Below the pieces are notes generated by a model. It had not been told where the DNA came from. It saw nothing but the letters and a program-made list of their open reading frames with translations, and searched no databases. Source: an uncultured Planctomycetia bacterium (GTDB lineage Bacteria > Omnitrophota > Gorgyraeia > JABMRN01 > RBG-13-46-9). From it: 64,000 bases of DNA. The translations under genes and the position numbers were made by a program. Of this stretch, positions 1,730 to 57,535 are shown piece by piece. The stretch lies in the NCBI GenBank assembly GCA_964440235.1, contig CAYTQI010000003.1, positions 1,599-65,598 of the forward strand. The letters are read 5' to 3'. The first letter of the stretch is position 1. Each line of letters opens with the position of its first letter.

Positions 1730-3172
1730 TTATTTTCCAATACAGAATTTTGAAAAAATTCTATCCAGCATGTCCGGGCCCGTCGCCTCGCCAAGAATGG
1801 AGCCGAGAAAAAATACGGCATCCCTCAGTGCCAAAGCGGTTATTTCCGGTTTGAAAAGAGAGCCCGGACGCAAGGTGTTTACGGCCATTTTTACGCGTTT
1901 ACGGGCGCGTTCAAGATCCTTTTTATGCCTCAGATTTGTTATAAACGCCGCTTCGGGATGCCTCAGGCGCCCCCTCCAGATTTCTCCCAGTATCGACTTT
2001 TCTATCATGTTCAGATTCTTTTTTTTCAGCACCGAAATTTCCATTATATCGTCTTTTCGCGTAACGCGTTTTACCTTCTTCAAATCAAGCCTTTTCGGAA
2101 GGTCGCTCTTATTGGCGATTACCATGAATTTTCCGCCCTTTATCTTGCTGAATATATCGCTGTCGGCTTTGGACCATGGCTTGCTCGAATCCAGCATGAA
2201 CAGGATAAGGTCGGCTGCCTTTATGTAGGACCTGGACTTTTGCATCCCGCGCCTCTGGACAATATTTCCGCCGGCGGAAATACCGGCGGTGTCAACAATT
2301 CTTATCGGTATACCGTCTAAACTTATTTCCTCCTCTATCGCGTCACGGGTCGTGCCCGGAACCGGGGTAACGATAACCCTGTTCCGCCTCAAAAAAGCGT
2401 TCATGAGCGATGACTTGCCCGCGTTGGGCCTGCCGCATATAACGCACATTATGCCTTCCCTGAGAATAATACCTTTATTCGCGCCGTCAATAAGTTTTCC
2501 CATCTCCCCGGAAATACGCGTTAAACCGCGCGAAAGCGATTTTTTGGGCGTGAACTCTATGTCATCTTCGGAAAAATCGATCCGCGCCTCTATTTCACTC
2601 AAAACGTTCAGAACTTCTTTTTTTAACCGGTTTATTTTCCCGGAAAGTTCCCCTTCCAGCTGGCATAGAGCCGCCTTCATGGAATCCTCTGTCTTTGAAC
2701 GGATAATATCCAGGACCGCCTCGGCCTGGGCGAGATCGATCCTTCCGTTCATAAAAGCCCTTCTTGTAAATTCACCCGGCTGCGCGAGCCGCGCACCCAG
2801 ACTTAAAATAAGCTCCAGCACTTTACGCAAAGGGACTATGCCCCCGTGGCAGTTTATCTCGACGATATCTTCTTTTGTGTAACTTTTTGGCGAGCGCATT
2901 ACGGTGAGTATGACTTCATCTATAACTTCCGCGTTTTTGTCATCGCGAAAAATCCTGCCGGGCCCGGGGCGGTATTTCGGGGCTCGGGGCGCCGCGAAGC
3001 AAATAATGTGGCCGTAGTGCGTAGTGTATGTTTTAGATTCAGAGGGCTTACGCCCGCTTTTCGGCCTGAATATTTTATCAGCCACCGAAAGCGCCCTTTG
3101 GCCGCTCATGCGCACTATGCCGATACCGCCCTCGCCTACAGGCGTTGATATCGCAACGATCGTGTCTTCCAT
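1730..3172 (-). CDS. mnmE: tRNA modification GTPase MnmE (TrmE)
   Basis: N-terminal MEDTIVAISTPVGEGGIGIVRMSG, G-domain GxPNAGKSSL and TRD motifs, C-terminal CIGK tetrapeptide. ATG confirmed at 3170-3172. Confidence 0.9.
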   Translation of the reverse strand: MEDTIVAISTPVGEGGIGIVRMSGQRALSVADKIFRPKSGRKPSESKTYTTHYGHIICFAAPRAPKYRPGPGRIFRDDKNAEVIDEVILTVMRSPKSYTKEDIVEINCHGGIVPLRKVLELILSLGARLAQPGEFTRRAFMNGRIDLAQAEAVLDIIRSKTEDSMKAALCQLEGELSGKINRLKKEVLNVLSEIEARIDFSEDDIEFTPKKSLSRGLTRISGEMGKLIDGANKGIILREGIMCVICGRPNAGKSSLMNAFLRRNRVIVTPVPGTTRDAIEEEISLDGIPIRIVDTAGISAGGNIVQRRGMQKSRSYIKAADLILFMLDSSKPWSKADSDIFSKIKGGKFMVIANKSDLPKRLDLKKVKRVTRKDDIMEISVLKKKNLNMIEKSILGEIWRGRLRHPEAAFITNLRHKKDLERARKRVKMAVNTLRPGSLFKPEITALALRDAVFFLGSILGEATGPDMLDRIFSKFCIGK

Positions 3173-6129: not shown

Positions 6130-8412
6130 TTATCCGCACTTAGAATAACCGCAGGACCTGCAAACCATGCACCCCTCGACATGCCACAGCGCCCCTCCGC
6201 AATCCGGGCACACGCCGACAACACTCGCCATTTTCTTCTTTGCGGTTACACCGGCCGGGGCGGCCCCGAAAAGCGGCCCCGTAACCGAAGGCGGGCCATC
6301 TTTTTCTTCTCTCTTCGCCTTTACCAGGCGCCTTTCCATAACGCGCGCTATGGCGTCACTGCAGGAAAATATCCTTCCGCCCTTTTCCCAGCTCGGCGCC
6401 GGGCACCTTATCCCCTTTAACTGCTCGATGATAGAAAGTATTTCTATGCCGCTTCGCAGGGCGAGAGAAAGAAGCCTGCCGATAGCCTCGAGCTGGCTCA
6501 TCGCGCATCCGCCGGCTTTTCCCATCTGCATAAACACCTCAAAAGGCAACCCGTTCTCGTCCTCGTTTATGGTAACATAAAGATTGCCACAGCCTGTCGC
6601 GATTTTTGTGGTGGTCCCGTATATAACGTCGGGCCTCGGGCGGGGAACTATTTTCGAAACGGTCACGGCGGTTTCTTTCTCTTTCTCTTTCTCTTTCTCT
6701 TTCTCAATATTTAATACCTGTTCCTGCCGCGACTTGTCCCTGTAGACGGTAACGCCTTTGCATCCGGCCCTGTGCGCCAGCAGATAAGCCTGTTTTATGT
6801 CTTCCTCGGTGCTTTTGTTAGGAAAATTTATCGTCTTTGAAACAGCGTTATCCGTATGTTTTTGGAACGCGGCCTGTATTTTTATGTGCCATTCGGGGGA
6901 TATGTCATGGGACGTAACGAAAATTCTTTTTACATCATCGGGAATTTCTTTAAAATCCTGTATACTGCCTTTGACGGCTATTTTTTTGAGAAGCTCCTCG
7001 CTCCAGAATCCCCTTTCTTCGGCTATTTTTTTAAAAGCGCCGTTGATCTCGGGAAGCCTGTCTTTATCCATCACCTCTTTGTAGTAAACAAGGGCGAAAA
7101 TCGGCTCTATCCCGCTGGAGCAATCCGCGATAATACTCAAAGTTCCCGTCGGAGCGATAGTGGTTAATGTGGCGTTTCTCAGATTCGGTCCGTTCGGACT
7201 GTTATACACGCTTTTTTTGATATTCGGGAAAGCCCCTCTTTCCCGCGCCAGCTCGCAGGACGCTTTTTTTGCCTCGTTTAAAATAAAACTCATGACTTTA
7301 TCGGCCGTGAATACGGCCTCATCCGAGTTATAAGGTATGCCCAATTCGACAAGCATGTCCGCGAAACCCATAACGCCAAGCCCTATCTTGCGGTTGGCCT
7401 TTGTTATTTTCTCGATTTTCTTCAGCGGAAATTTGTTCATGTCAATAACATTATCGAGAAAATGAACGGCCGTTTTCACGATCCTGGCGAGTTTTTCCAT
7501 GTTGATTTTCCCGTTCGAGACTATCCGGGAAAGATTTATCGAAGCCAGGTTGCACGATTCATGGGGTAAAAGCACCTGCTCGCCGCAGGGATTTGTTGAT
7601 TCATATAATCCGACCTTCGGCGTCGGATTGAATTCATTCATCTTATCGATGAATATAATTCCCGGCTCACCGTTTTTCCACGCCATTTTTACTATGAGAT
7701 CGAAAACCTCGCGGGCGTTTAACCTTGTGACGGATTTTTTGCTGCGGGGATCCACAAGGTCATAATCTTCGCCCGACTCCACCTTTTCCATGAAGTCCTC
7801 GGTAACGGCTACCGAAATGTTGAAATTATTTATCGCTTTGTCGCTTTCCTTGCAGGTAATAAATTCCAGAATATCAGGGTGGTCAACGCGCAGTATACCC
7901 ATGTTGGCCCCGCGGCGGGTTCCCCCCTGCTTTACGGCTTGTGTTGCCGCGTCAAAAACTTTTAAAAATGATACCGGGCCGCTGGCCACGCCTCCGGTTG
8001 AACGCACCTGGCTGCTTTTGGATCGCAAACGTGAAAAGGAAAATCCTGTTCCGCCTCCCGACTTATGAATCATGGCCGTATCTTTGATGGTTTCAAATAT
8101 CGATTCCATCGAATCCTCTATCGGCAGCACAAAACAGGCGCTTAATTGCTGCAGGTCCCTGCCGGCGTTCATGAGAGTAGGCGAATTGGGTAAAAATTCC
8201 AGGGCGGTCATCGCGTTATAAAATTTTTCTCTTGTTTCCTGAAGGCCTTTTCCGGACGCGTACAATTTGTCCGCGAAAGCAATGTTTTCGGTCACTCGCA
8301 GGAACATTTCCTCCGGCGTCTCGGAGACTTCGCCTTTTTCGTTTTTCGCGAGATACCTTTTTCTGAGAACCTTTACGGCGTTTTCTGAAAGACGTAAATT
8401 TTTATTTTTCAT
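6130..8412 (-). CDS. nrdJ: adenosylcobalamin-dependent ribonucleoside-diphosphate/triphosphate reductase, class II
   Basis: 760 aa. N-terminal ATP-cone-less RNR II signature (LSENAVKVLRKRYL...ETPEEMFLRV), catalytic NPCGEQ, C-terminal CxxC...CxxC redox tail. Contains an internal (EK)5 low-complexity insert. ATG and GGAGGG SD confirmed at 8410-8430. Confidence 0.9.
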   Translation of the reverse strand: MKNKNLRLSENAVKVLRKRYLAKNEKGEVSETPEEMFLRVTENIAFADKLYASGKGLQETREKFYNAMTALEFLPNSPTLMNAGRDLQQLSACFVLPIEDSMESIFETIKDTAMIHKSGGGTGFSFSRLRSKSSQVRSTGGVASGPVSFLKVFDAATQAVKQGGTRRGANMGILRVDHPDILEFITCKESDKAINNFNISVAVTEDFMEKVESGEDYDLVDPRSKKSVTRLNAREVFDLIVKMAWKNGEPGIIFIDKMNEFNPTPKVGLYESTNPCGEQVLLPHESCNLASINLSRIVSNGKINMEKLARIVKTAVHFLDNVIDMNKFPLKKIEKITKANRKIGLGVMGFADMLVELGIPYNSDEAVFTADKVMSFILNEAKKASCELARERGAFPNIKKSVYNSPNGPNLRNATLTTIAPTGTLSIIADCSSGIEPIFALVYYKEVMDKDRLPEINGAFKKIAEERGFWSEELLKKIAVKGSIQDFKEIPDDVKRIFVTSHDISPEWHIKIQAAFQKHTDNAVSKTINFPNKSTEEDIKQAYLLAHRAGCKGVTVYRDKSRQEQVLNIEKEKEKEKEKETAVTVSKIVPRPRPDVIYGTTTKIATGCGNLYVTINEDENGLPFEVFMQMGKAGGCAMSQLEAIGRLLSLALRSGIEILSIIEQLKGIRCPAPSWEKGGRIFSCSDAIARVMERRLVKAKREEKDGPPSVTGPLFGAAPAGVTAKKKMASVVGVCPDCGGALWHVEGCMVCRSCGYSKCG
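6672..6705. repeat. hexanucleotide microsatellite (CTTTCT)n, about 5 units, in-frame inside nrdJ, encoding (EK)5
   Basis: tttctttctctttctctttctctttctctttctc; the minus-strand reading GAG AAA x5 gives EKEKEKEKEKE between the catalytic core and the C-terminal domain of NrdJ. Confidence 0.8.
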
Positions 8413-9184: not shown

Positions 9185-11497
9185 TCACCCCCTTTCTTCT
9201 TTGCCGTAAAACGTATATGTTTTATTGAACGTTATTTTATGAACCGAATTAAAACATTTGATAAGCATGGCCCCTTTTTTCCGGCTTTCGGCGAAAATTT
9301 TTATTTTTTTATTTCTAACGGAGACCCTCAGGATAGACTGGCGCCAGTTAAGGCAGAATTTTATATTTTTCCAGTGCTCGGGAAGCCGCGGCTCGAATGA
9401 AGGCAGGTTATGCATATTCCTGAAACCGGCAAACCCCATTACCACCGCCTGCCATGTGCCGCCCAGTGAGGCGGCATGTATGCCGTCACCCGTATTTGAA
9501 TGGGTATTTTTAAGATCCGCGTAGAGTGAAAAAAGAAAATACAGGTAGCTTCTCGTGCGATCTTTGACCTCGGAAGCGATTATTGAATGAATGCTCGGGC
9601 TGAGAGAAGATTTGTGCAGGGTTCTTTTTACATAATATAAATAATTTTTCGCGATATCGTTTTCCCTGAAATTTTCCGGTAAAACGTATGTAAGCATCAC
9701 GACGTCGGCCTGCTTTACCAGCTGTGTCTTCTTTATACCGGCCAGGGAAATTTCGTGAGGGGTAATCGGCATGAAATAGCTGTTAAATTTTTTCGGAATG
9801 ACGTCTTTTTTTCTGAAATATCCGTCGAATTCCTCAATAATCCCTTTTGATTTTGAAAACGGGAATTTTATATTTTTCGCTATGTCCGCCCAGTGCCGGA
9901 TCTCGCCTTCCTTGAGCGATATTTTCCTCGCTACCCTTCTCAGGCCCCGTGGCCTTTGCCTGTAAAAACGCCCGTATAGGTCTTTCGCCATCAGAAGGTT
10001 CCACCTGGCCATCTGGTTGGTATAGGCGTTATTGTTGACATTTTCGTGAAATTCGTCCGGGCCGATAACGCCGTTTATGTCAAATTTTTTCTTCTTTCCT
10101 TTACGCGTCACGCGGCTGGCCCAGAATCTGGCCGCCTCAAATATCATCTCAAGGCCGGCCTTCAGCATGAAATCAATGTCAGCCGTAATATTAAAATAAT
10201 GCCAGATGCCGTAGGAGACATCGGAAACGATATGGTGTTCAAGATCTCCGGTATGAATTTCTATGATGGAACCGTCCAGATTTTTCGCGTAGGGCGGCGT
10301 TGTCTCACCCCCGGTATCGGCGGATTCCCAGGGGAAAAGCGCGCCCCTGTAGCCCTTGGATTTAGCTATTTCCCGGGCCTCATCAAGCCGGTGAAATCTA
10401 TACATCAAAAGGTTTCTGGCTATGGCCGGAGACGTATATATGAAAAACGGCAGAATAAAAATCTCCGTATCCCAGAAAATATGCCCCCTGTAGCCGTGCC
10501 CGCTCAATGTCTTCGCTCCTATACTTACATTGTCATCGCCTTCCTTGCCCGATATAAGCAGATGGTACATGTTGAAACGCAGGGCCTTCTGGGCTTCTTT
10601 GTCACCCGCTATTTTTATATCCGCGTCATTCCATCTATCCCGCCACTTTTCGGTATGCCTTTTTAAAAGTTCCTTAAATCCAGCCTGTTTCGCCCATCGC
10701 AGGTCATTTACGGTTATTTTTTTCAATTTTTCGCGGCTTATGTGCTTGGATGTGTGTATTGAGAAAATTTTTGTGAAACACAGCGTTTCATTTCTTTTTA
10801 ACGACATGTTGAAAATTTTATTCAGAGTCCCCATGCCCTCGCCAAGCCCCCTTCCGACCGCGAGAAATGAGGCGTAGGCAATCCAGATCTTGTTCGTAAA
10901 AGTCTTTACGCAGAGATAGTTCAGGTCTTCGGCGGCTGAAACATCCACTAGCTGGGTATGCCTTTTTCTTCCCTCGAGAATGTCGCCGGGATTTGTCACC
11001 GAATCATCCACGGTATCCTGTACGATTATCCTGGCAGGCTTATCCATAGCCTTCAGATAAACCTGCATCGCGCCTATATGCGTATCACGCATGCTGAAAA
11101 ATCGGAGCGATTCATACAAAAATCTCCTTTTTTTCGTATCGGAAAATATCGTTTTCCTGGCGAGAATACCGTTTTTCAGGTCAAGGACCCTTTTGTTTTC
11201 TATAATATCCATTCTGCCGATATCCAGCTTTTCGCCTTCTACCGCGATTCGAAAATTAATCGGGTTAGGGGCGTTTACCAGTTCCGGAACCATGGAAACC
11301 GCTTTATCGTAAATACCTGCTATGTATGTACCGGCTTCCGTACCCTCGGGTATTTCTTCGTAAATACCCCTTGAACCGAGATATCCGTTTCCCAGGGTAA
11401 AAATACTTTCTCCCGCATTTAAACCTCGGGAAGAATATCCGTTTTCCGCTATAAGCCAGCTTTTATCGGCCAGATATTTATAAAATCTGCTTTTCAT
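9185..11497 (-). CDS. glycoside hydrolase family 65 disaccharide phosphorylase (maltose/trehalose/kojibiose/nigerose phosphorylase family)
   Basis: 770 aa. GH65 central catalytic signature GHIFWDTEIFILPFF plus N-terminal beta-sandwich and C-terminal domains. Adjacent beta-phosphoglucomutase. Confidence 0.8.
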   Translation of the reverse strand: MKSRFYKYLADKSWLIAENGYSSRGLNAGESIFTLGNGYLGSRGIYEEIPEGTEAGTYIAGIYDKAVSMVPELVNAPNPINFRIAVEGEKLDIGRMDIIENKRVLDLKNGILARKTIFSDTKKRRFLYESLRFFSMRDTHIGAMQVYLKAMDKPARIIVQDTVDDSVTNPGDILEGRKRHTQLVDVSAAEDLNYLCVKTFTNKIWIAYASFLAVGRGLGEGMGTLNKIFNMSLKRNETLCFTKIFSIHTSKHISREKLKKITVNDLRWAKQAGFKELLKRHTEKWRDRWNDADIKIAGDKEAQKALRFNMYHLLISGKEGDDNVSIGAKTLSGHGYRGHIFWDTEIFILPFFIYTSPAIARNLLMYRFHRLDEAREIAKSKGYRGALFPWESADTGGETTPPYAKNLDGSIIEIHTGDLEHHIVSDVSYGIWHYFNITADIDFMLKAGLEMIFEAARFWASRVTRKGKKKKFDINGVIGPDEFHENVNNNAYTNQMARWNLLMAKDLYGRFYRQRPRGLRRVARKISLKEGEIRHWADIAKNIKFPFSKSKGIIEEFDGYFRKKDVIPKKFNSYFMPITPHEISLAGIKKTQLVKQADVVMLTYVLPENFRENDIAKNYLYYVKRTLHKSSLSPSIHSIIASEVKDRTRSYLYFLFSLYADLKNTHSNTGDGIHAASLGGTWQAVVMGFAGFRNMHNLPSFEPRLPEHWKNIKFCLNWRQSILRVSVRNKKIKIFAESRKKGAMLIKCFNSVHKITFNKTYTFYGKEERG

Positions 11498-37630: not shown

Positions 37631-38377
37631 TTACCTTTTACGGGCGCGGGCTTTAGGGCCCGGCTGATTAACTTTTTTAAATTTTGGCCTTGTTCCTCGG
37701 ACTTTTTTATGCCCGGGCGGATTTTTTAGTTTTTTCGGCGGAAGCGGCTTTTGCCCGGCTTCCTTGTCTTTTAAATGTTTACGTCCGTGGGGACTTTTTT
37801 TCGGGGGTAATTTGCGGGGAGGCCGTTTTCGAGGAGGCCTTCTGTGTTTCGGAGGAAGTTGGCCCTCCGCGTCTTCTACGGATTCCGCGGAGTCTTTATG
37901 CCCCATATAACCACCCTCACCCTCGCCACGATGAACCTTTTTCGGTTTTCGTTCACCGCGCGGGCGCTTTCGCGGCGGCCGTTTTCGAGGGGGTAATTTG
38001 CGCGGCGGCCGTTTTCGAGGAGGCCTTCTGTGTTTCGGAGGAAGTTGGCCCTCCGCGTCTTCTACGGATTCCGCGGAGTCTTTATGCCCCATATAACCAC
38101 CCTCACCCTCGCCACGATGAACCTTTTTCGGTTTTCGTTCACCGCGCGGGCGCTTTCGCGGCGGCCGTTTTCGAGGGGGTAATTTGCGGGGCGATTTACC
38201 CGGGCCCCCTTTAGGGCCGGGCGGATTACCTTTTTTCATTGCCGGTGACTTACCCGGGCCCCCTTTAGGGCCGGGCGGATTACCTTTTCGTTGCGCGTAA
38301 GATAATGACGTTGATAGTGTAAAAATCAACATCGTAAAAAGGACTATTGTATTGAACACTACAATTTTTTTCCGCAT
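37631..38377 (-). CDS. secreted, extremely basic Pro/Lys/Arg-rich tandem-repeat protein
   Basis: ATG at 38377 with a perfect SD AAAGGAGGAACAGGT; signal peptide MRKKIVVFNTIVLFTMLIFTLSTSLSYAQ. Two 18-aa repeats (KKGNPPGPKGGPGKSP), then two identical 62-aa repeats (RKLPPRKRPPRKRPRGERKPKKVHRGEGEGGYMGHKDSAESVEDAEGQLPPKHRRPPRKRPP) encoded by a roughly 186-bp tandem duplication that is 100% identical. Confidence 0.6.
   Translation of the reverse strand: MRKKIVVFNTIVLFTMLIFTLSTSLSYAQRKGNPPGPKGGPGKSPAMKKGNPPGPKGGPGKSPRKLPPRKRPPRKRPRGERKPKKVHRGEGEGGYMGHKDSAESVEDAEGQLPPKHRRPPRKRPPRKLPPRKRPPRKRPRGERKPKKVHRGEGEGGYMGHKDSAESVEDAEGQLPPKHRRPPRKRPPRKLPPKKSPHGRKHLKDKEAGQKPLPPKKLKNPPGHKKVRGTRPKFKKVNQPGPKARARKR
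37790..38300. repeat. nested tandem repeats inside the basic secreted protein gene: two copies of a roughly 186-bp unit (100% identical over about 180 bp), two copies of a 54-bp unit, and short CGGCCGTTTTCGAGG(G/A)GG sub-repeats
   Basis: Unit copies start near 37822 and 38008; the 54-bp unit (ttacccgggccccctttagggccgggcggattacctttt) starts near 38196 and 38250. Confidence 0.8.
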
Positions 38378-45279: not shown

Positions 45280-47427
45280 TTATTTTTCCTTTAATCCCAT
45301 CAAAACCGCTATCTCCTCATACACCTCTTCGGGTTTAATTGCCTTCATACAACTGTTGCGCTTGGCGCAACGGCTGTGATAGCACGGGCCGCACTTGAAT
45401 TTTTTTCTTAAAACTACGTGTTTTTTTTCGAACGGCGGCAGGTGCCTTTTCGGGTCGGTCGGCCCGAAAAGCGCGACAAAAGGAGTACCGACGCCCGCGG
45501 CCACGTGCAGCGGAGCGCTATCAACACACAGGACAAGATCGCACCTTTTTACCAGGGCCGCAAAATAAAGTATGTTCGTCCTGCCAATGGCGTCTATAGG
45601 TTTACACCTGGCGCGTGCCAAAAATTTATTCGCGAGAGGGCGTTCTTTTTCGAGGCCTGTCAGCAGGACTCGAATACCGAAGTTCAATGCGAGTTTGTTG
45701 CAAACCTCGGCAAAATATTCCGCCGGCCACAGTTTTGTATTCCAGCCGGCGCTCGCGCCGAGGCTAATGGCTATAATTTTTTGCCCGTCTTTCACCCAAT
45801 GGGACTTCAGGAAATTATCCGCCCATTCCTGATCTTCTTTTGAAAGGCAAATTTCCGGGCGCTTATCCATTCTGTATATACCCAGAAGATTCAGCACCTT
45901 TAGCTGGTGTTCCACCGGGTCAACGGGAAAACCTGAATCCCTGATTTTCCTGTTTAACAAAAAACTCATTTTCCCGTTGTCGTAACCGTACCTCTTCGGC
46001 ACGCACGCCATAAACGCGAGCATGTGGCTTTTTTTGTTGTTCTGAAAATCGATTGATATGTCAAAATTTTCGGCGTGAAGTTTTTTCAGGACACGCAGGA
46101 AACCCGCCGGGGAAGCGTCCCTGCCCTTGAAATCGCATATGATTATGTCGTCTATAAAATTGAGATTCGCGAGAACCCCCCTGTTTTCCACGCCAAGCAG
46201 AACTTTTATCTTCGCTTTCGGAAACTTCTTTCTTATGGCTCGAAGCGACGGAACAGCCAGGATAACGTCCCCCAGCGCCCCTATCTTTATGACAAGTATA
46301 TTCATACTCGAGGACGCTTCTTCATAAAGATCCAGTGTAGATTCCATTATGCTTTTTGTGCCGTATTCCTGTTTTAAAAGTTTTTCTGATTCGTTTTTGA
46401 TGTCGCTTTTTAAATTTTCATTTCTGTACAAACCGATTATCGCTTTCGCCGCCTCGCCCGGTTCTTCGCCTGAAATCAGGAAAGCTTTCTTGTTATCCCG
46501 CGCGTAATCTTTTATCCATTCAGCGCGCGTCGTAAACACCGGCACCCCTCCGGCCCAGGCACGCAAAAAAAGTTTCGGGGATGTGTACGCATCCGCGTTA
46601 AAATGCATGAACAAATCCAGGCCGGATATGGATTCCGATACTTTCTCGCCGGGCAAAAGAGTGACAACGCCTTCGAGCGAATACCGCCTTACGAGAAGCC
46701 TGAATTTTTCCAATTCCCTTTTTTGGCTTGTCAGCGCGCTATTAATCAAAAAAACCCTCATATTATATATTGTCCTGGAAATAATCGAAATTGTTTTTAC
46801 AAAATTTTCCGCCGCTTCCTGCGATGTAAGCGGCAAATTCACCCCAATATCAAAATACTTACCTCGTTCCACTGCGTCAGTGGAAAGAGGGGTACTCTTT
46901 CCACTGACGCAGTGGAACGAGGGGTTTTTCATGGAATTGAACTCCTGCGTGCCGGCAAACGGTGGTATAACGCGTATTTTGCCTCTGTGAATAAGGCCTT
47001 TTTCCATAAAGTACCTGGCAAAGCTTTCACAAGAACAGATTACGCGTTTTGCCCAAAATTGAGCCCTTGATCCCAACCCCCTTCCGCAAAAACCGTATAC
47101 CGTAGAAACAAATGTGCGTTCGGTAATGCGGCTTGCAAAAAATGATATGAGAGCCGAAGCGGGGCATCTCGCGTGTACAATGCGTATATCTTCTTTTCGA
47201 ATAATTTGTGACAGCTTAAAAATTGCCGCAGGAATCAGGAAAATATTCGCCGGAACCCCGAGAGCGTAATGACGCGCCCCGACTTCATCGATTTTTTTCA
47301 CGAGTTCACTTTTTGGGGAAGCCACGACAATCTTATGCCCGTTGAGAGCGAGAAAACGCGTGGAAACAATGACGTCGTCGGCGGCATCGCTCGAATCTAA
47401 CTTCGATATTACCTGTAGTATATTCAT
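45280..47427 (-). CDS. two-domain protein: N-terminal GT4-like glycosyltransferase fused to a C-terminal GT9 heptosyltransferase-like domain
   Basis: 715 aa continuous ORF. aa 1-370 are GT-B/GT4-like; aa 375-715 are GT9 (GALGDVILAVPS, SLGASAGWNTKLW, VDSAPLHVAAG). It contains a 61-bp perfect palindrome inserted in-frame (encoding SFHCVSGKSTPLSTDAVERG). Confidence 0.7.
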   Translation of the reverse strand: MNILQVISKLDSSDAADDVIVSTRFLALNGHKIVVASPKSELVKKIDEVGARHYALGVPANIFLIPAAIFKLSQIIRKEDIRIVHARCPASALISFFASRITERTFVSTVYGFCGRGLGSRAQFWAKRVICSCESFARYFMEKGLIHRGKIRVIPPFAGTQEFNSMKNPSFHCVSGKSTPLSTDAVERGKYFDIGVNLPLTSQEAAENFVKTISIISRTIYNMRVFLINSALTSQKRELEKFRLLVRRYSLEGVVTLLPGEKVSESISGLDLFMHFNADAYTSPKLFLRAWAGGVPVFTTRAEWIKDYARDNKKAFLISGEEPGEAAKAIIGLYRNENLKSDIKNESEKLLKQEYGTKSIMESTLDLYEEASSSMNILVIKIGALGDVILAVPSLRAIRKKFPKAKIKVLLGVENRGVLANLNFIDDIIICDFKGRDASPAGFLRVLKKLHAENFDISIDFQNNKKSHMLAFMACVPKRYGYDNGKMSFLLNRKIRDSGFPVDPVEHQLKVLNLLGIYRMDKRPEICLSKEDQEWADNFLKSHWVKDGQKIIAISLGASAGWNTKLWPAEYFAEVCNKLALNFGIRVLLTGLEKERPLANKFLARARCKPIDAIGRTNILYFAALVKRCDLVLCVDSAPLHVAAGVGTPFVALFGPTDPKRHLPPFEKKHVVLRKKFKCGPCYHSRCAKRNSCMKAIKPEEVYEEIAVLMGLKEK
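46862..46922. repeat. 61-bp perfect palindromic element, copy 1: 28-nt arms CCTCGTTCCACTGCGTCAGTGGAAAGAG around a 5-nt centre, inside the GT4-GT9 fusion gene
   Basis: Seen directly: cctcgttccactgcgtcagtggaaagag-gggta-ctctttccactgacgcagtggaacgagg. Shares the 19-nt core TTCCACTGCGTCAGTGGAA and its reverse complement with copy 2. The host ORF reads through it in-frame. Confidence 0.85.
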
Positions 47428-51800: not shown

Positions 51801-52264
51801 TTCTGTTTTGTTTCTCCGTTAAAAAGCGCCTTGCATATATCCATTCGCGTAATAATTCCCGCCAATTTATTATCATCGCCGGTCACGACAGGTAGCCTTC
51901 GTATATTATACTTATTCATTAAAACGGGGGCTTTCATTAAAGACGCGTTTTCCTTTATACTGATAACATTCGCGACCATGAGGTCTTCGGCAATAAAAAG
52001 CTCGAGTGACGGCATGAATTCAAGTTTTTCCTCAAGGGCGCCAAGGTCATCAATGAATAAAAAATCGCCTATCATTTCAAAATAATCGGGAATCAGAACA
52101 TCTATGAGTTCTGTTTTTGTAACCATTCCAAGGAGCCTGCCTTCGCCATCGGTAACGGGTACGCCGCCTATGTTTTTTTCGCAAAAAATTCTATATATCT
52201 GCCGAAGTCCTGTCGAAAGTCCGACTGTAGCAACATTTCTTGTCATTACATCTTTAACTTTCAT
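51797..52264 (-). CDS. CBS-pair domain protein
   Basis: Two CBS motifs (VKDVMTRNVATV...; EDLMVANVISIKENAS...RRLPVV). Confidence 0.7.
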   Translation of the reverse strand: MKVKDVMTRNVATVGLSTGLRQIYRIFCEKNIGGVPVTDGEGRLLGMVTKTELIDVLIPDYFEMIGDFLFIDDLGALEEKLEFMPSLELFIAEDLMVANVISIKENASLMKAPVLMNKYNIRRLPVVTGDDNKLAGIITRMDICKALFNGETKQK

Positions 52265-53549
52265 GCCGCCGGTGGCCTCCTATAAAATGCGTTATTTCCT
52301 CAACATTTTTAATCGTAGCCCCTTTTTGCCTGTCCAGCAATTTTTTCGCATTCTGCCCCAACACCTCGGCTGTACTTTTATCCAGGAGCAATCTTCGAAG
52401 CGCCCCGGTTAACCCATCTTTGTCCGCAACCTCAAGGGCGGCTTTTTTTTCCAGAAAAATTCTCGCCATGTCCCTAAAATTAAACATATAAGGCCCGAAA
52501 ATAATGGGTTTCCCGAACATTGCCGGCTCCACCATGTTATGCCCGCCCCTTTTGACAAGGCTTCCGCCCATAAAAACAATTTCCGCAAGACCAAAAATCC
52601 ATTTAAGATCCCCTAAAGTATCAAGTATAAGAATTGTTTTTTCGGAAATATTTTTTTTTGCCGTTTTTTTGAAATATGATACAAATTCCCCTTTAAAACC
52701 CATTTTGTCGGTCATTTTTTTTATCGCGGCCGAACGCCCTATGTGACGGGGTGCTATGAGAAGACGCAAATTCCGGAATTCACTTGTTAGCTCAGCATAA
52801 ACCTGGAGGATTATTTCTTCCTCACCGCCGTGTGTGGATCCGGCCACGAACAACCGCCCGCCCGCCAATTCCACTGCGTCAGTGGAACCGGTATCCCACT
52901 GACGCAGTGGAATTGGTTGTTCGGCATCGAATTTCATGTTTCCCGTTACTTTAACGCATCTTGCCGGAGCGCCGAGGGATTTTATGTTGTATGCGTCCGT
53001 TTCCGTCTGCATGCAAAAAAGGCTGATTTTTTTCAATATACCTTCAAAAAAAATCTTTATTTTCCGGTATCCCCGTAAAGACCTATTTGAAATACGTCCG
53101 TTTATAAGTATCACCGGTATCTTTTTTTTCGACAGTTCCAAAATAAAATTCGGCCAGATTTCCGTTTCCATGATAAACACAGCCGAAGGATTAATAATGT
53201 TTATCACATGCCTCACCACAAAACTAAAATCTACCGGAAAATAAAATTTCCTGATTTCATTTCCGAATAACTTTTCGGCAACGGTATTACCGGTACGCGT
53301 CGTCGTTGAAAGAACGATTTTTTTATCCGGAAATTTGTTGGATAATTTTTTTACGAAATTTTTTACGGCCAGGACTTCGCCCACGCTTACAGCGTGTATC
53401 CATACCGGGCGCAGGGCACCTATTTCTCTGAATGCTGCCGGCAGGCGCCCGAAACGCTGCGTAAAATCACGGTGCGCCTTTCCCTTTATGACAAGATAGG
53501 GAAGATATGCAAGCGCGAATACGAAAAAGAATACATCGTAGATTGTCAT
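52254..53549 (-). CDS. waaA: 3-deoxy-D-manno-octulosonic acid (Kdo) transferase
   Basis: KdtA signature PVWIHAVSVGEVLA and the C-terminal GT-B domain. It contains the second copy of the palindromic element in-frame (encoding IPLRQWDTGSTDAVELAG). Confidence 0.85.
   Translation of the reverse strand: MTIYDVFFFVFALAYLPYLVIKGKAHRDFTQRFGRLPAAFREIGALRPVWIHAVSVGEVLAVKNFVKKLSNKFPDKKIVLSTTTRTGNTVAEKLFGNEIRKFYFPVDFSFVVRHVINIINPSAVFIMETEIWPNFILELSKKKIPVILINGRISNRSLRGYRKIKIFFEGILKKISLFCMQTETDAYNIKSLGAPARCVKVTGNMKFDAEQPIPLRQWDTGSTDAVELAGGRLFVAGSTHGGEEEIILQVYAELTSEFRNLRLLIAPRHIGRSAAIKKMTDKMGFKGEFVSYFKKTAKKNISEKTILILDTLGDLKWIFGLAEIVFMGGSLVKRGGHNMVEPAMFGKPIIFGPYMFNFRDMARIFLEKKAALEVADKDGLTGALRRLLLDKSTAEVLGQNAKKLLDRQKGATIKNVEEITHFIGGHRRHES
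52865..52916. repeat. 52-bp palindromic element, copy 2: arms CCAATTCCACTGCGTCAGTGG / CCACTGACGCAGTGGAATTGG around a 10-nt spacer containing ACCGGT, inside waaA
   Basis: Seen directly: ccaattccactgcgtcagtgg-aaccggtatc-ccactgacgcagtggaattgg. Same core as copy 1 with different flanks and spacer; in-frame in the host gene. Confidence 0.85.
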
Positions 53550-54645: not shown

Positions 54646-56643
54646 TCATGTATTTTCTTCCTTGGGCAACGACCTCGATGTATATTTGCACTCGGGAAAC
54701 TTCGTGCACCCGTAAAAAAACCCGCGTTTTGAGCGCCTTTCTATAAGTTCCCCGTCGCATCCGGGATTGGGGCATTTCACGCCTGTCGTAATGGATTTGG
54801 CAAATTTGCATTTTGGAAAATCGGAACAGCTTAAAAATTTTCCGCGCCTGCCCCATTTAATGATCATGGGCTTACCGCACAATTCACAAATCTCGTCGGT
54901 TTTTATGCCTTCTTTTTTTATGCTTTTCATATTTTTCTTGGCCATATCCACGCTGTGCATAAAAGGGCTGTAAAAGCCTTTTAACACTACGAGAGAATCG
55001 ATTTTCCCTTCTTCGATGCCATCAAGCTCTTCTTCCATTTTCGCCGTGAATTTAACATCCATTATTTTAGGGAAATGCTTTACAAGAAGGCTGTTCGTAA
55101 TTTCGCCTAATTCCGTGGGTGAAAGGTAACCCCTCATTCGTTTTACGTAATTACGCATTATGATAGTGTAAATAATCGGCGCGTAAGTGGATGGACGGCC
55201 TATCCCGTTTTCCTCCAACGCCTTTACCAGCGTGGCGTCGGAATAACGTGCCGGGGGTTTTGTAAAATGCTGGGATGGAACGAGTTTTAAAAGATTCAGG
55301 TGTTCCCCGACTTTTAATAGCGGCATCTTCCATTCGGACAGGCGCCTTTCCCCTTCTTTCTGTGTTTCAGAAGGGGTATATAAAATCGTGAAACCGTCAA
55401 AAACCACTCTTGTCCCGGATGTTTTAAAAAGGTAGGGGCCTGATTCTATAAAAACGGTATTTACCGAATATACCGCTTTCACCATCTGACTCGAGACAAA
55501 CCTCTTCCATATGAGTTCATATAACTTTAGTTGCTCCGGCGTTAAAAAATCTTTCAGTGTTTCCGGATTTCTTAAAGGTACTGTCGGCCTGATGCATTCA
55601 TGGGCCTCCTGGGCACTTTTTCGCGATTTATACACATTCGGTTTTGCGGGATAATACTTTTCGCCGTAAGTCTTTAATATATACTTTTTTGCTGCTTCCT
55701 GCGCGTCGCGCGAGACCCTTACGGAATCCGTTCTCATATACGTTATGAGACCCACACCCTCTTTATCTTCTAATTCCACGCCCTCATACAGGGATTGCGC
55801 TATGCGCATGGTTTTATTTACGGAAAAACGCAATTTGTTAAAAGCGTCCTGCTGCATTTTTGAAGTCGTGAAAGGCGCCTGTGGTGAACGTCTTTTTTTG
55901 CCTTCTTTTGTGTTTGATACAATAAATTCATTCTTTTTTATATTGTCCAGCGCGGAAGCGGCCTCTTTTTCGCTTGTAATGCGAAAATCTTTACCGTCAA
56001 TTTTGTCCAGGCTGGCCGTAAAACTGCGTTTCTCGTCAACCTTTTTTCTCAAATGCGCTTCTATTTCCCAGTATTCCTGCGGTTTGAATTTCCGTATCTC
56101 CGCCTCTTTTTCCACAACAAGCCGCACGGCTACGGATTGCACCCTGCCCGCGGAAAGGCCCCTGGTAATTTTTTTCCAGAGAAGAGGGCTCAAGCTGTAA
56201 CCCACAATTCTGTCCAGGATCCGGCGCGCCTGCTGGGCGCTTACAAGATTTTTATCAATGTCATGCGGGCGCTCAAAAGCTTTTGTTACAGCGGCGTGAG
56301 TGATTTCATCAAAAGTTACCCTGTATACTTTTTTTCCCCTGCCAAGTTCTCTTTTGAGGTGCCAGCTTATCGCCTCGCCTTCCCTGTCAGGATCAGCGGC
56401 GAGATATATGGCATCGCTATTTTTTATTTCTTTTTTTAGCTTTGCCAGGTATTTTCTTCTTTCGGGAATAACTATATACTCCGGCCTGAAATTATCTTCG
56501 ACATCGATTCCCATTTTGCTTTTCGGCAGGTCTATCATGTGGCCCATGCTCGAAAGCACTACATATCCCGAACCAAGTATCTTGTTGATCGTTTTGGATT
56601 TTGCGGGTGACTCCACTATGACAATTGCTTTTCTTTTAGGCAT
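54646..56643 (-). CDS. topA: DNA topoisomerase I
   Basis: TOPRIM N-terminus (IVIVESPAKSKTI, DPDREGEAISWHL), catalytic Tyr region, C-terminal Cx2C zinc-ribbon repeats. Confidence 0.9.
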   Translation of the reverse strand: MPKRKAIVIVESPAKSKTINKILGSGYVVLSSMGHMIDLPKSKMGIDVEDNFRPEYIVIPERRKYLAKLKKEIKNSDAIYLAADPDREGEAISWHLKRELGRGKKVYRVTFDEITHAAVTKAFERPHDIDKNLVSAQQARRILDRIVGYSLSPLLWKKITRGLSAGRVQSVAVRLVVEKEAEIRKFKPQEYWEIEAHLRKKVDEKRSFTASLDKIDGKDFRITSEKEAASALDNIKKNEFIVSNTKEGKKRRSPQAPFTTSKMQQDAFNKLRFSVNKTMRIAQSLYEGVELEDKEGVGLITYMRTDSVRVSRDAQEAAKKYILKTYGEKYYPAKPNVYKSRKSAQEAHECIRPTVPLRNPETLKDFLTPEQLKLYELIWKRFVSSQMVKAVYSVNTVFIESGPYLFKTSGTRVVFDGFTILYTPSETQKEGERRLSEWKMPLLKVGEHLNLLKLVPSQHFTKPPARYSDATLVKALEENGIGRPSTYAPIIYTIIMRNYVKRMRGYLSPTELGEITNSLLVKHFPKIMDVKFTAKMEEELDGIEEGKIDSLVVLKGFYSPFMHSVDMAKKNMKSIKKEGIKTDEICELCGKPMIIKWGRRGKFLSCSDFPKCKFAKSITTGVKCPNPGCDGELIERRSKRGFFYGCTKFPECKYTSRSLPKEENT

Positions 56644-57535
56644 ATTCCTCTTTTATAAAATTTTCGCCCGGCAAAGTTTTAATCAGCTTCTTAAGCTCAA
56701 GCCTAAGCAGCGTTTCCGATATTTTATTTACCGGTATGTTTATTATTTTCGATATTTCATCGATTGACCTGGGCTCGTTTCCCAAAATTTCGAATATTTT
56801 CGCCTCATCCGCCGACATGGACCTTACAATACCGGGTTTTGGTAAACCCGGTATTGTAAGGTTATTGCTGGTTTTCTTAATGTTAATGACGTAGCTGAGT
56901 TCCTCGAGTATATCCCCGACGTTTTCGACAAGCTTGGCGCCTTCCTTTATGAGGCGGTTTGTGCCGCTTGATTTGGCAGAGCTTACATTGCCGGGCATAG
57001 CGAAAACCTCTCTTCCCTGTTCAAGGGCAAAATTGGCCGTTATTAAAGCGCCGCTTTTTTGAGGGGCTTCTATCACAATTACGCCTTTTGACATGCCGCT
57101 TACTATCCTGTTTCTCCTTGGAAAATTCAGTTTAAGCGGCGGCGTCTCCGGCGAATATTCCGATATGACCGCCCCGTTTCTCACAATTTCGCGGTAAAGC
57201 TTGGCGTTTTCCGGAGGATATATATTATCGTGCCCGCTTCCCAGAACCGCTATCGTTCTCCCGCCGGCCTTTATAGCGCCTCTATGCGAGGCGGTATCGA
57301 TACCAAGAGCCATTCCGCTGACAATGGTTATTCCCCGCGCGGCCAGGTCAAATGAAAGTTTTTCGCACTGCCGGAGCCCGTAATCCGTGGCGCGCCTGGT
57401 GCCAACGATGGCTATCGCGTTTGAATCAGAGGCAAGGATTTCACCGTTAACAAAAAGCGCTTCCGGTGCGTTGTATATATGCCTCAAGATATCGGGATAT
57501 TCCCCGTTTTCCTTTTCTATTCTTCTTACAGCCAT
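56636..57535 (-). CDS. dprA: DNA processing protein DprA (Smf)
   Basis: Rossmann-like DprA core (IVGTRRATDYG...IVSGMALGIDTASH...IAVLGSGHD) plus a C-terminal winged-helix-like segment. Confidence 0.85.
   Translation of the reverse strand: MAVRRIEKENGEYPDILRHIYNAPEALFVNGEILASDSNAIAIVGTRRATDYGLRQCEKLSFDLAARGITIVSGMALGIDTASHRGAIKAGGRTIAVLGSGHDNIYPPENAKLYREIVRNGAVISEYSPETPPLKLNFPRRNRIVSGMSKGVIVIEAPQKSGALITANFALEQGREVFAMPGNVSSAKSSGTNRLIKEGAKLVENVGDILEELSYVINIKKTSNNLTIPGLPKPGIVRSMSADEAKIFEILGNEPRSIDEISKIINIPVNKISETLLRLELKKLIKTLPGENFIKEEYA

Follow-up and report, generated by a model that had tools for sequence, protein, structure and literature searches.

How does a perfect palindrome come to lie, in frame and translated, inside an essential lipopolysaccharide (LPS) gene? 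The gene is waaA, on a 64,000-nucleotide (nt) stretch of DNA from an uncultured bacterium of the Omnitrophota (GenBank assembly GCA_964440235.1, contig CAYTQI010000003.1, positions 1,599 to 65,598), which we call the window. It runs from 52254 to 53549 on the minus strand and encodes a 3-deoxy-D-manno-oct-2-ulosonic acid (Kdo) transferase of family GT30 with 431 amino acids (PF04413, E=6e-62); the best solved relative is Aquifex WaaA (2xci). The palindrome at 52865 to 52916 reads CCAATTCCACTGCGTCAGTGG-aaccggtatc-CCACTGACGCAGTGGAATTGG, a perfect inverted repeat with arms of 21 nt (52865 to 52885 and 52896 to 52916) that are 100% complementary around a spacer of 10 nt. On the minus strand it fills nt 634 to 685 of the gene and is translated as PIPLRQWDTGSTDAVELA. 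The original prediction, made from the letters of the window, had the palindrome exactly and in frame, and its placement at about codons 211 to 228 was essentially right, the mapped codons being 212 to 229. We consider it very likely that the palindrome is a REPIN, an inverted doublet of repetitive extragenic palindromic (REP) units, which belongs to a multicopy family linked to a REP-associated tyrosine transposase (RAYT) and sits in frame in an enzyme linker as a tolerated passenger.

The palindrome is built from two smaller ones. The left REP unit, at 52869 to 52887 on the plus strand, is an exact match to the 19-mer TTCCACTG-CGT-CAGTGGAA and folds alone into a small hairpin with a stem of 8 bp and a CGT triloop. 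The right unit is inverted, at 52894 to 52912 (TTCCACTGCGTCAGTGGGA on the minus strand), and has one mismatch to the same 19-mer. Its 15-nt core, CCACTG(CGT/ACG)CAGTGG, has four occurrences in the window, where shuffles predict 0.04. Even when up to three mismatches are tolerated, the 19-mer has only two sites in the window, waaA and a gene about 6 kb away for a fusion glycosyltransferase of 715 amino acids (45280 to 47427, minus strand), with a GT4-type part at residues 24 to 349 and a GT9 heptosyltransferase part at residues 444 to 689. This sister REPIN (46862 to 46922) has arms of 28 nt (46862 to 46889 and 46895 to 46922) and a spacer of 5 nt, and it encodes, in frame, residues 169 to 189, PSFHCVSGKSTPLSTDAVERG, at the point where one half of the N-terminal GT-B module gives way to the other. 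The ortholog of the fusion protein at the related locus L001 has no palindrome and is 15 residues shorter, with the gaps falling at the element site. Thus, the waaA palindrome is the second copy of a repeated element with a shared core, as had been proposed, and the proposed frames also hold: the right arm is read as STDAVE in both genes, while the left arm is read as FHCVSG in one and PLRQW in the other. Both elements are inverted pairs of hairpin units, in which each arm is itself a small hairpin. Folded whole, the waaA element is predicted to be very stable, at −54.2 kcal/mol as RNA (z=−7.95 against shuffled controls) and −26.8 kcal/mol as single-stranded DNA (z=−11.0).

We searched for further members by scanning metagenome contigs at JGI with the 19-mer. 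The scan gave 19 loci. Inverted doublets are present at 13 or 14 of them, in every case on Ga0180431/432 contigs, and sister samples of these contain a relative of the window, L024/L025. The genome-wide census that had been suggested for the element has thus been made on metagenome contigs: at least 13 of them carry the core in inverted doublets, a count of contigs rather than of copies in a whole genome. Altogether there are 33 units, 4 in the window and 29 at 14 Ga0180431/432 loci (13 contigs), arranged as 15 inverted doublets of 44 to 75 nt overall and one direct pair (L005). The contigs with doublets resemble the window closely in tetranucleotide usage (r=0.990, compared with 0.994 between the window's own halves); sister lineages reach 0.95 to 0.96 and unrelated loci 0.5 or less. 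A scan of one representative genome per GTDB species returned one match, a single unit in a contig of Streptococcus oralis, which we take as chance; the host genome is thus absent from that collection.

When the units are aligned by their CGT loop, they have a common 5′ flank of about AACCC-N-G, and on the inner side of the doublets the 3′ flank is unconstrained. As its 5′ flank is conserved, the unit has the asymmetry of classical REPs. The two units of a doublet may come in either order, CGT..ACG or ACG..CGT. The stem base has a loose family consensus, AACCC-N-G ... C-N-GGGTT, that covaries between the arms. Across the 15 doublets, 94.4% of the aligned cells are paired, and in 11 of 25 pairs both sides have changed; the observed covariation score was reached by none of 500 shuffles, and moving the partner by one to three columns reduced pairing to 30 to 52%. 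This bears on the flanks of the two window copies (cctcg/cgagg and ccaa/ttgg), which extend the palindromes without being common to them and for which target duplication had been offered as one origin. We reject that origin, as the flanks match the family stem consensus and are variants of the stem base that differ by one substitution and have changed on both arms.

The family also comes with a candidate enzyme. An open reading frame (ORF) of 209 amino acids at locus L016 (7174 to 7803; the same locus as L028 and L027, where it lies at 10001 to 10630) matches the Y1 transposase family PF01797 (Y1_Tnp) at 31.2 bits, above the cut-off of 23, and the NCBIfam model NF047646 (REP_Tyr_transpos, “REP-associated tyrosine transposase”) at 68.5 bits (E=5.5e-19). 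It also matches Escherichia coli TnpA-REP (PDB 4er8) with E=3.3e-6 and has the HUH motif MPTHLHLIL. At L016 a doublet precedes the ORF, and a lone unit, whose stem has 15 bp, comes right past the stop codon of the ORF. A putative RAYT flanked in this way by the family's REP units is the defining arrangement of a REP-RAYT system. Relatives of this RAYT that are 55 to 64% identical are widespread in metagenome-assembled genomes of Omnitrophota. In one of them (L030, 10001 to 10630) the gene order cinA-RAYT-recA-recX-alaS is the same as at L027, with the RAYT 63% and RecA 78% identical. Hairpins of this design, with compensatory changes in the stem, also flank other RAYT genes: CCCACCT-CGT-AGGTGGG at L030 and TCCACCT-ACG-AGGTGGA at L033. 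The stems at L027 and L030 read CCACTG and CCACCT, respectively, and the loop is CGT in both; from this comparison, the RAYT and its hairpin look as if they co-diverge. The tetranucleotides CGTC, in the type found in the window, and GTAG, in the type found at L030, L033, and L001, lie at the hairpin apex, partly in the triloop and partly in the stem.

We then asked how WaaA accommodates the element. The REPIN lies between the N-terminal domain (PF04413, residues 29 to 209) and the C-terminal domain, which begins at about residue 232. In an AlphaFold model built on the ortholog alignment (mean predicted local distance difference test [pLDDT] score, 83.6), residues 213 to 227 are the sole internal segment of low confidence, and pLDDT falls below 50 only there and at the C terminus. 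The segment sits between the last strand of the N domain (199 to 201) and the first strand of the C domain (232 to 239), and the best structural match of the model is Aquifex WaaA (E of about 1e-22). In the model, the REPIN is translated as a disordered inter-domain loop of about 18 residues, in agreement with the expectation that a GT-B enzyme would tolerate such a sequence between its domains. We think the REPIN in WaaA is best read as a tolerated selfish passenger, presumably neutral, and not as an adaptive part of the enzyme. A separate gene call from JGI (P0008, 252 amino acids) is 100% identical to the C-terminal 58% of WaaA. Its start is an internal Met that lies upstream of the element, no exact match to it is on record, and it is probably a shorter call rather than a split gene.

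Homologs of WaaA place the window in Candidatus Omnitrophota. The history of this linker can be followed in relatives that have the gene order dprA-topA-xerC-waaA-CBS-arsB-lpxK, namely, L001 (the same as L002 and L003), L024/L025, L026, and L035. The ortholog alignment varies most in the stretch between the motifs NMKFD and AGSTH, and the segment is thus not conserved ancestral WaaA sequence, which was the result that would have spoken against a foreign element. The linker has 23 residues in the window, 27 in L001, and 25 in L024; it is shorter in the window than in the closest orthologs, P0001 and P0003, and is 7 residues longer than in the palindrome-free L026 and 11 longer than in Aquifex. 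Most orthologs, like L026, have no palindrome in the linker. An insertion of roughly 17 amino acids had been predicted for alignment with orthologs and the Aquifex enzyme; the alignments bear out the location in the linker and not the net gain in length.

The linker of L001 has its own perfect palindrome, of 45 nt (6895 to 6939), made of units of another REP type (GACCT-ACG-AGGTC). It is in the same codon register as the window palindrome, and the two centers fall within 1 nt of each other. Since it matches the doublet that flanks the RAYT gene of L033 at 36 of 42 aligned positions, we regard it as a REPIN of a sister type. In the L024 linker, the L001 palindrome is present in decayed form. 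The GACCT core of L001 was found, across all the loci retrieved, at its own site and in the waaA linker of P0009 (L035), and relatives of the CACCT type flank the RAYT genes of L030 and L033. A quartet of the window, L001, L024, and L026 is star-like, with 26, 25, and 21 informative sites for the three groupings, and fits shared ancestry and independent hits alike.

A pair of genes from a clade more distant from the window captures an arrival more cleanly. The waaA genes of P0009 (L035, 3001 to 4251) and P0007 (L036, 523 to 1749) are 97.6% identical in DNA, and between identical flanks the linker has 53 nt in P0009 and 29 unrelated nt in P0007. The 53 nt hold a perfect 42-nt doublet, CCTGACCTCGTAGGTCTGGGT/ACCCAGACCTACGAGGTCAGG, and the linkers of P0011 and P0014 are of the P0007 type. 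From these alignments, a REPIN arrived recently in the P0009 linker and replaced resident DNA there, with a net change of +24 nt that keeps the frame. This filled and empty pair concerns the sister REP type and not the core found in the window. If arriving REPINs replace resident linker DNA, this would be why the window linker is not longer than those of its relatives. Because the P0009 doublet arrived at the same linker, the site has been hit repeatedly: REP doublets are found in the waaA linkers of three or four lineages, for which there is a precedent in the different REPs found at about the same site of Xanthomonas recB (PMC3733652). The doublets of L001, L024, and P0009 have a common left junction, GAA|ACCGA.

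In P0007 (L036, about 1130 to 1200, covering the waaA linker and the conserved SDLGISESEE coding stretch), the conserved sequence that ends the linker, TCGGATCTGGGAATCAGCGAGTCCGA, itself forms a weak quasi-palindrome (TCGGA...TCCGA) that resembles AGGTCTGGGTAC, part of the doublet. It might be a preferred target site or an old, decayed element.

These observations suggest the following model. The REPIN consists of two inverted REP hairpins with the stem TTCCACTG/CAGTGGAA, a CGT triloop, and a variable AACCC...GGGTT base, and its cognate enzyme would be the RAYT encoded between cinA and recA, an IS200-type HUH/Y1 transposase for single-stranded DNA. If the system works like IS200/IS605 and E. 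coli TnpA-REP, the element in single-stranded form could adopt one long hairpin or a pair of small ones, and the RAYT would recognize the small hairpins and cut and rejoin the strand, so that copies spread. The copy in waaA would have landed in the variable linker that joins the two Rossmann-like GT-B domains, probably overwriting part of it. The gene stays open since the event kept the reading frame and the core, as read from its sequence, has a stop codon in only one of six frames.

Other genes seem to have accepted the element in the same manner. Seven of the 16 doublets are securely in frame inside genes, 8 are intergenic, and 1 is ambiguous; this last one, at the N terminus of truB (L014), may instead sit just upstream of the true start. 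The seven host genes are waaA, the GT4-GT9 fusion, pyrK, trpE/pabB, tsaC/sua5, coaX, and a gene for a PMT-TPR protein, and the element peptides are built from words such as STDAVE, FHCVSG, PLTQW, and the like. In comparisons with solved homologs, the element peptide falls in gaps totaling 15 residues in TsaC, in an 11-residue gap in PyrK, and in the inter-domain region of TrpE/PabB; in CoaX it replaces a variable loop with no gain in length. The copy in the PMT-TPR protein, too, coincides with a gap or loop in such a comparison.

A more ambitious version of the model would make the Omnitrophota REPIN-RAYT system a site-directed remodeler of linkers. Doublets would home to particular loops or linkers, possibly REP-like or decayed-REP ones, and overwrite them, a proposal that we regard as speculative and rather unlikely. 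We are equally doubtful of its corollary, that from time to time an intragenic doublet gives way to whichever REP type fits the current RAYT of the lineage. Together they would explain why the waaA linker has CCACTG units in the window, GACCT units in L001 and P0009, and a decayed GACCT copy in L024; they would also explain the codon register common to the window and L001, the GAA|ACCGA junction, and arrivals that replace rather than add sequence.

Several observations weigh against a RAYT-linked REPIN as the identity of the waaA palindrome. The NCBIfam score of the RAYT, 68.5 bits, is below the equivalog cut-off of 80 bits. A tblastn search of the 64-kb window found no RAYT, and the contig of the window is itself absent from the JGI metagenome matches, so that the link between window and RAYT runs through an identical core and a matching composition, not through physical linkage in one assembled genome. 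The waaA linker is no longer than those of orthologs and is thus not a simple insertion. Finally, about half of the doublets lie within genes, at odds with the description of REPINs as almost exclusively extragenic (bioRxiv 10.1101/2021.07.10.451892); intragenic REPs are, however, documented in other species (PMC3733652).

Among the alternatives, a selected cis-acting element fares best, although we consider it improbable. The palindrome could impose a translation pause between the WaaA domains, stabilize the mRNA or direct its cleavage, or bind a protein that coordinates the LPS-core genes. Both window copies are in genes for LPS-core glycosyltransferases on the same strand, the predicted mRNA hairpin is very stable, the waaA linker has acquired a REP doublet in more than one lineage, and REPs have been reported as RNA elements in other bacteria (PMC3733652). 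Yet other copies of the family are in unrelated genes (pyrK, trpE/pabB, tsaC, and coaX) and in intergenic spacers, and L026 and most orthologs do without a palindrome in the linker. An Rfam scan of the whole 64-kb window returned no family at threshold, tRNAs and rRNAs included. A terminator scan found none on the waaA sense strand and one weak site on the antisense strand, no more than by chance. An intrinsic transcription terminator is also rejected by inspection, as on the sense strand the hairpin is followed by CGGGCGGGCGG and not by a U-run. The association with a transposase would account for the spread without any function for the host.

Origin in place, without a mobile element, is less probable still. 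Local template switching, i.e., correction of a quasi-palindrome to a perfect one, could have acted in a poorly constrained linker, and it would fit the absence of a net length gain in the waaA linker. It would also yield arms that are perfectly complementary in each doublet even where the copies differ, as a hairpin-templated process should, and a palindrome in dprA (56821 to 56862) looks exactly like such a product. However, the exact 19-nt core recurs 6 kb away and in at least 13 doublets elsewhere, and it flanks a RAYT gene. Local template switching cannot make one sequence at many loci, and the census largely refutes it as the source of the element. It may help to keep the arms of REPINs symmetric.

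The dprA palindrome deserves description for its own sake. It is the third perfect palindrome in the window, lies in dprA (56636 to 57535, minus strand), and has arms of 19 nt, ACCTTACAATACCGGGTTT/AAACCCGGTATTGTAAGGT, around a spacer of 4 nt. It is in frame and encodes NLTIPGLPKPGIVRS in the linker between the DprA domain and the C-terminal winged-helix domain. It has no REP core, the linker is as long as that of L024, and the right arm is homologous to the L024 sequence while the left arm is not. The comparison makes it look like an in-place conversion of a quasi-palindrome to a palindrome by template switching. At the same place in dprA, L001 has a palindrome that is 79% complementary (3008 to 3067). 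When an arm of the dprA palindrome was searched among all fetched loci, it was found at its own site only.

We consider very unlikely a small mobile element of a different kind, either a miniature inverted-repeat transposable element (MITE) derived from a DDE-type insertion sequence or a Rickettsia-type palindromic element (RPE) without a dedicated transposase. The family is short, palindromic, multicopy, and translatable in frame, as are RPEs and some MITEs (PMC10969869, PMC3733652). But no copy has a target-site duplication or direct repeat beside it, and its parts are hairpin units with a conserved triloop rather than the terminal inverted repeats of a larger insertion sequence (IS). The same units flank a Y1 transposase gene, and no parent IS for a MITE was seen in a search that was not exhaustive. 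RPEs are about 100 to 150 bp long, and the 52 to 61 nt of the window copies are far below this size. An assembly or amplification artifact is refuted: perfect palindromes are a classic product of multiple-displacement amplification and assembly as inverted chimeras, but 7 contigs from several sources, assembled independently, encode the exact WaaA protein, palindrome included, the GT4-GT9 protein has entries in five sources (NCBI, JGI, Logan, ENA, and gem), and the core occurs on many independent contigs.

With the waaA palindrome taken as a RAYT-linked REPIN, we compared the family with systems already described. In REPIN-RAYT systems, REP doublets form hairpins and are associated with a REP-associated tyrosine transposase (Bertels and Rainey 2011; PMC3116915), and REPINs show compensatory changes and alternative hairpin or “clover” folds (PMC3116915). 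The Omnitrophota family resembles them in its inverted doublets, which can be drawn as one long or two small hairpins, in the compensatory changes of its arms, and in a Y1/HUH gene that is flanked by its own units in a housekeeping neighborhood and has the same position between cinA and recA in a second lineage. It differs in having tighter doublets (44 to 75 nt overall, compared with the unit spacing of 71 to 110 nt in Pseudomonas REPINs) and in having its conserved tetranucleotide at the hairpin apex and not at the 5′ end. Unlike in known REPINs, about half of the doublets are translated, and arrival replaces resident sequence.

The nearest parallel for the translated copies is the work of Di Nocera, De Gregorio, and Rocco (2013; PMC3733652) on intragenic GTAG/CGTC-tagged REPs, which reach their highest numbers in Opitutus terrae and Rickettsia conorii. 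Singles and dimers of those REPs encode about 20 to 30 amino acids, argued to be flexible linkers or loops, and truB is a recurrent host (PMC3733652). Our family likewise has units and dimers in frame in genes, possibly including truB (L014), and the case of Xanthomonas recB, where different REPs occupy one site, parallels the waaA linker. Opitutus belongs to the same Planctomycetes-Verrucomicrobia-Chlamydiae (PVC) superphylum. However, in the Omnitrophota units CGTC or GTAG is located at the junction of loop and stem and is not a terminal tag, and the end of the unit that is conserved reads about AACCC-N-G; on this point the family does not qualify as one of the GTAG/CGTC families. The CGTC families are stated to have no dedicated transposase (PMC3733652), whereas the Omnitrophota family flanks a RAYT. 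The hosts also differ, being LPS and central-metabolism enzymes here and mainly DNA-repair genes for the REPs of Di Nocera and colleagues.

RPEs, which we compared by description only, are similar in being palindromic selfish repeats in frame in genes, translated as a surface peptide that the host enzyme tolerates. They have no identified transposase and are restricted to Rickettsia and relatives, in contrast to the elements of 44 to 75 nt with a RAYT in Omnitrophota. Quasi-palindrome template switches give perfect inverted repeats in place without a change in length, which fits dprA and could explain the matched arms of the doublets, but they differ from the family in its identical core at many unlinked loci and in its transposase association.

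In the literature library that we searched, no relevant report of REPs or palindromic elements from Omnitrophota turned up. The family would extend REPIN-RAYT systems to Candidatus Omnitrophota, an uncultured phylum, and it gives a concrete identity to an odd palindrome in an essential LPS gene. It is unusual for how often its doublets are translated, and in housekeeping enzymes at that. The differing REP types at one orthologous intragenic site offer material on target choice by RAYTs and on REPIN turnover. For annotation, perfect hairpins within the ORFs of genomes like this one are neither frameshifts nor artifacts, and the extra loop residues are derived from the element.

Two other features of the window were recorded. 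The plus-strand GC skew is negative in every 2-kb window of the 64 kb, and the genes examined around the element are all on the minus strand; the uniform skew and gene strand are consistent with a single replichore. Finally, a tandem duplication spans 37803 to 38193, with a period of 186 nt, 2.1 copies, and 98% identity, and contains a 15-nt subrepeat at 37960 to 38025.

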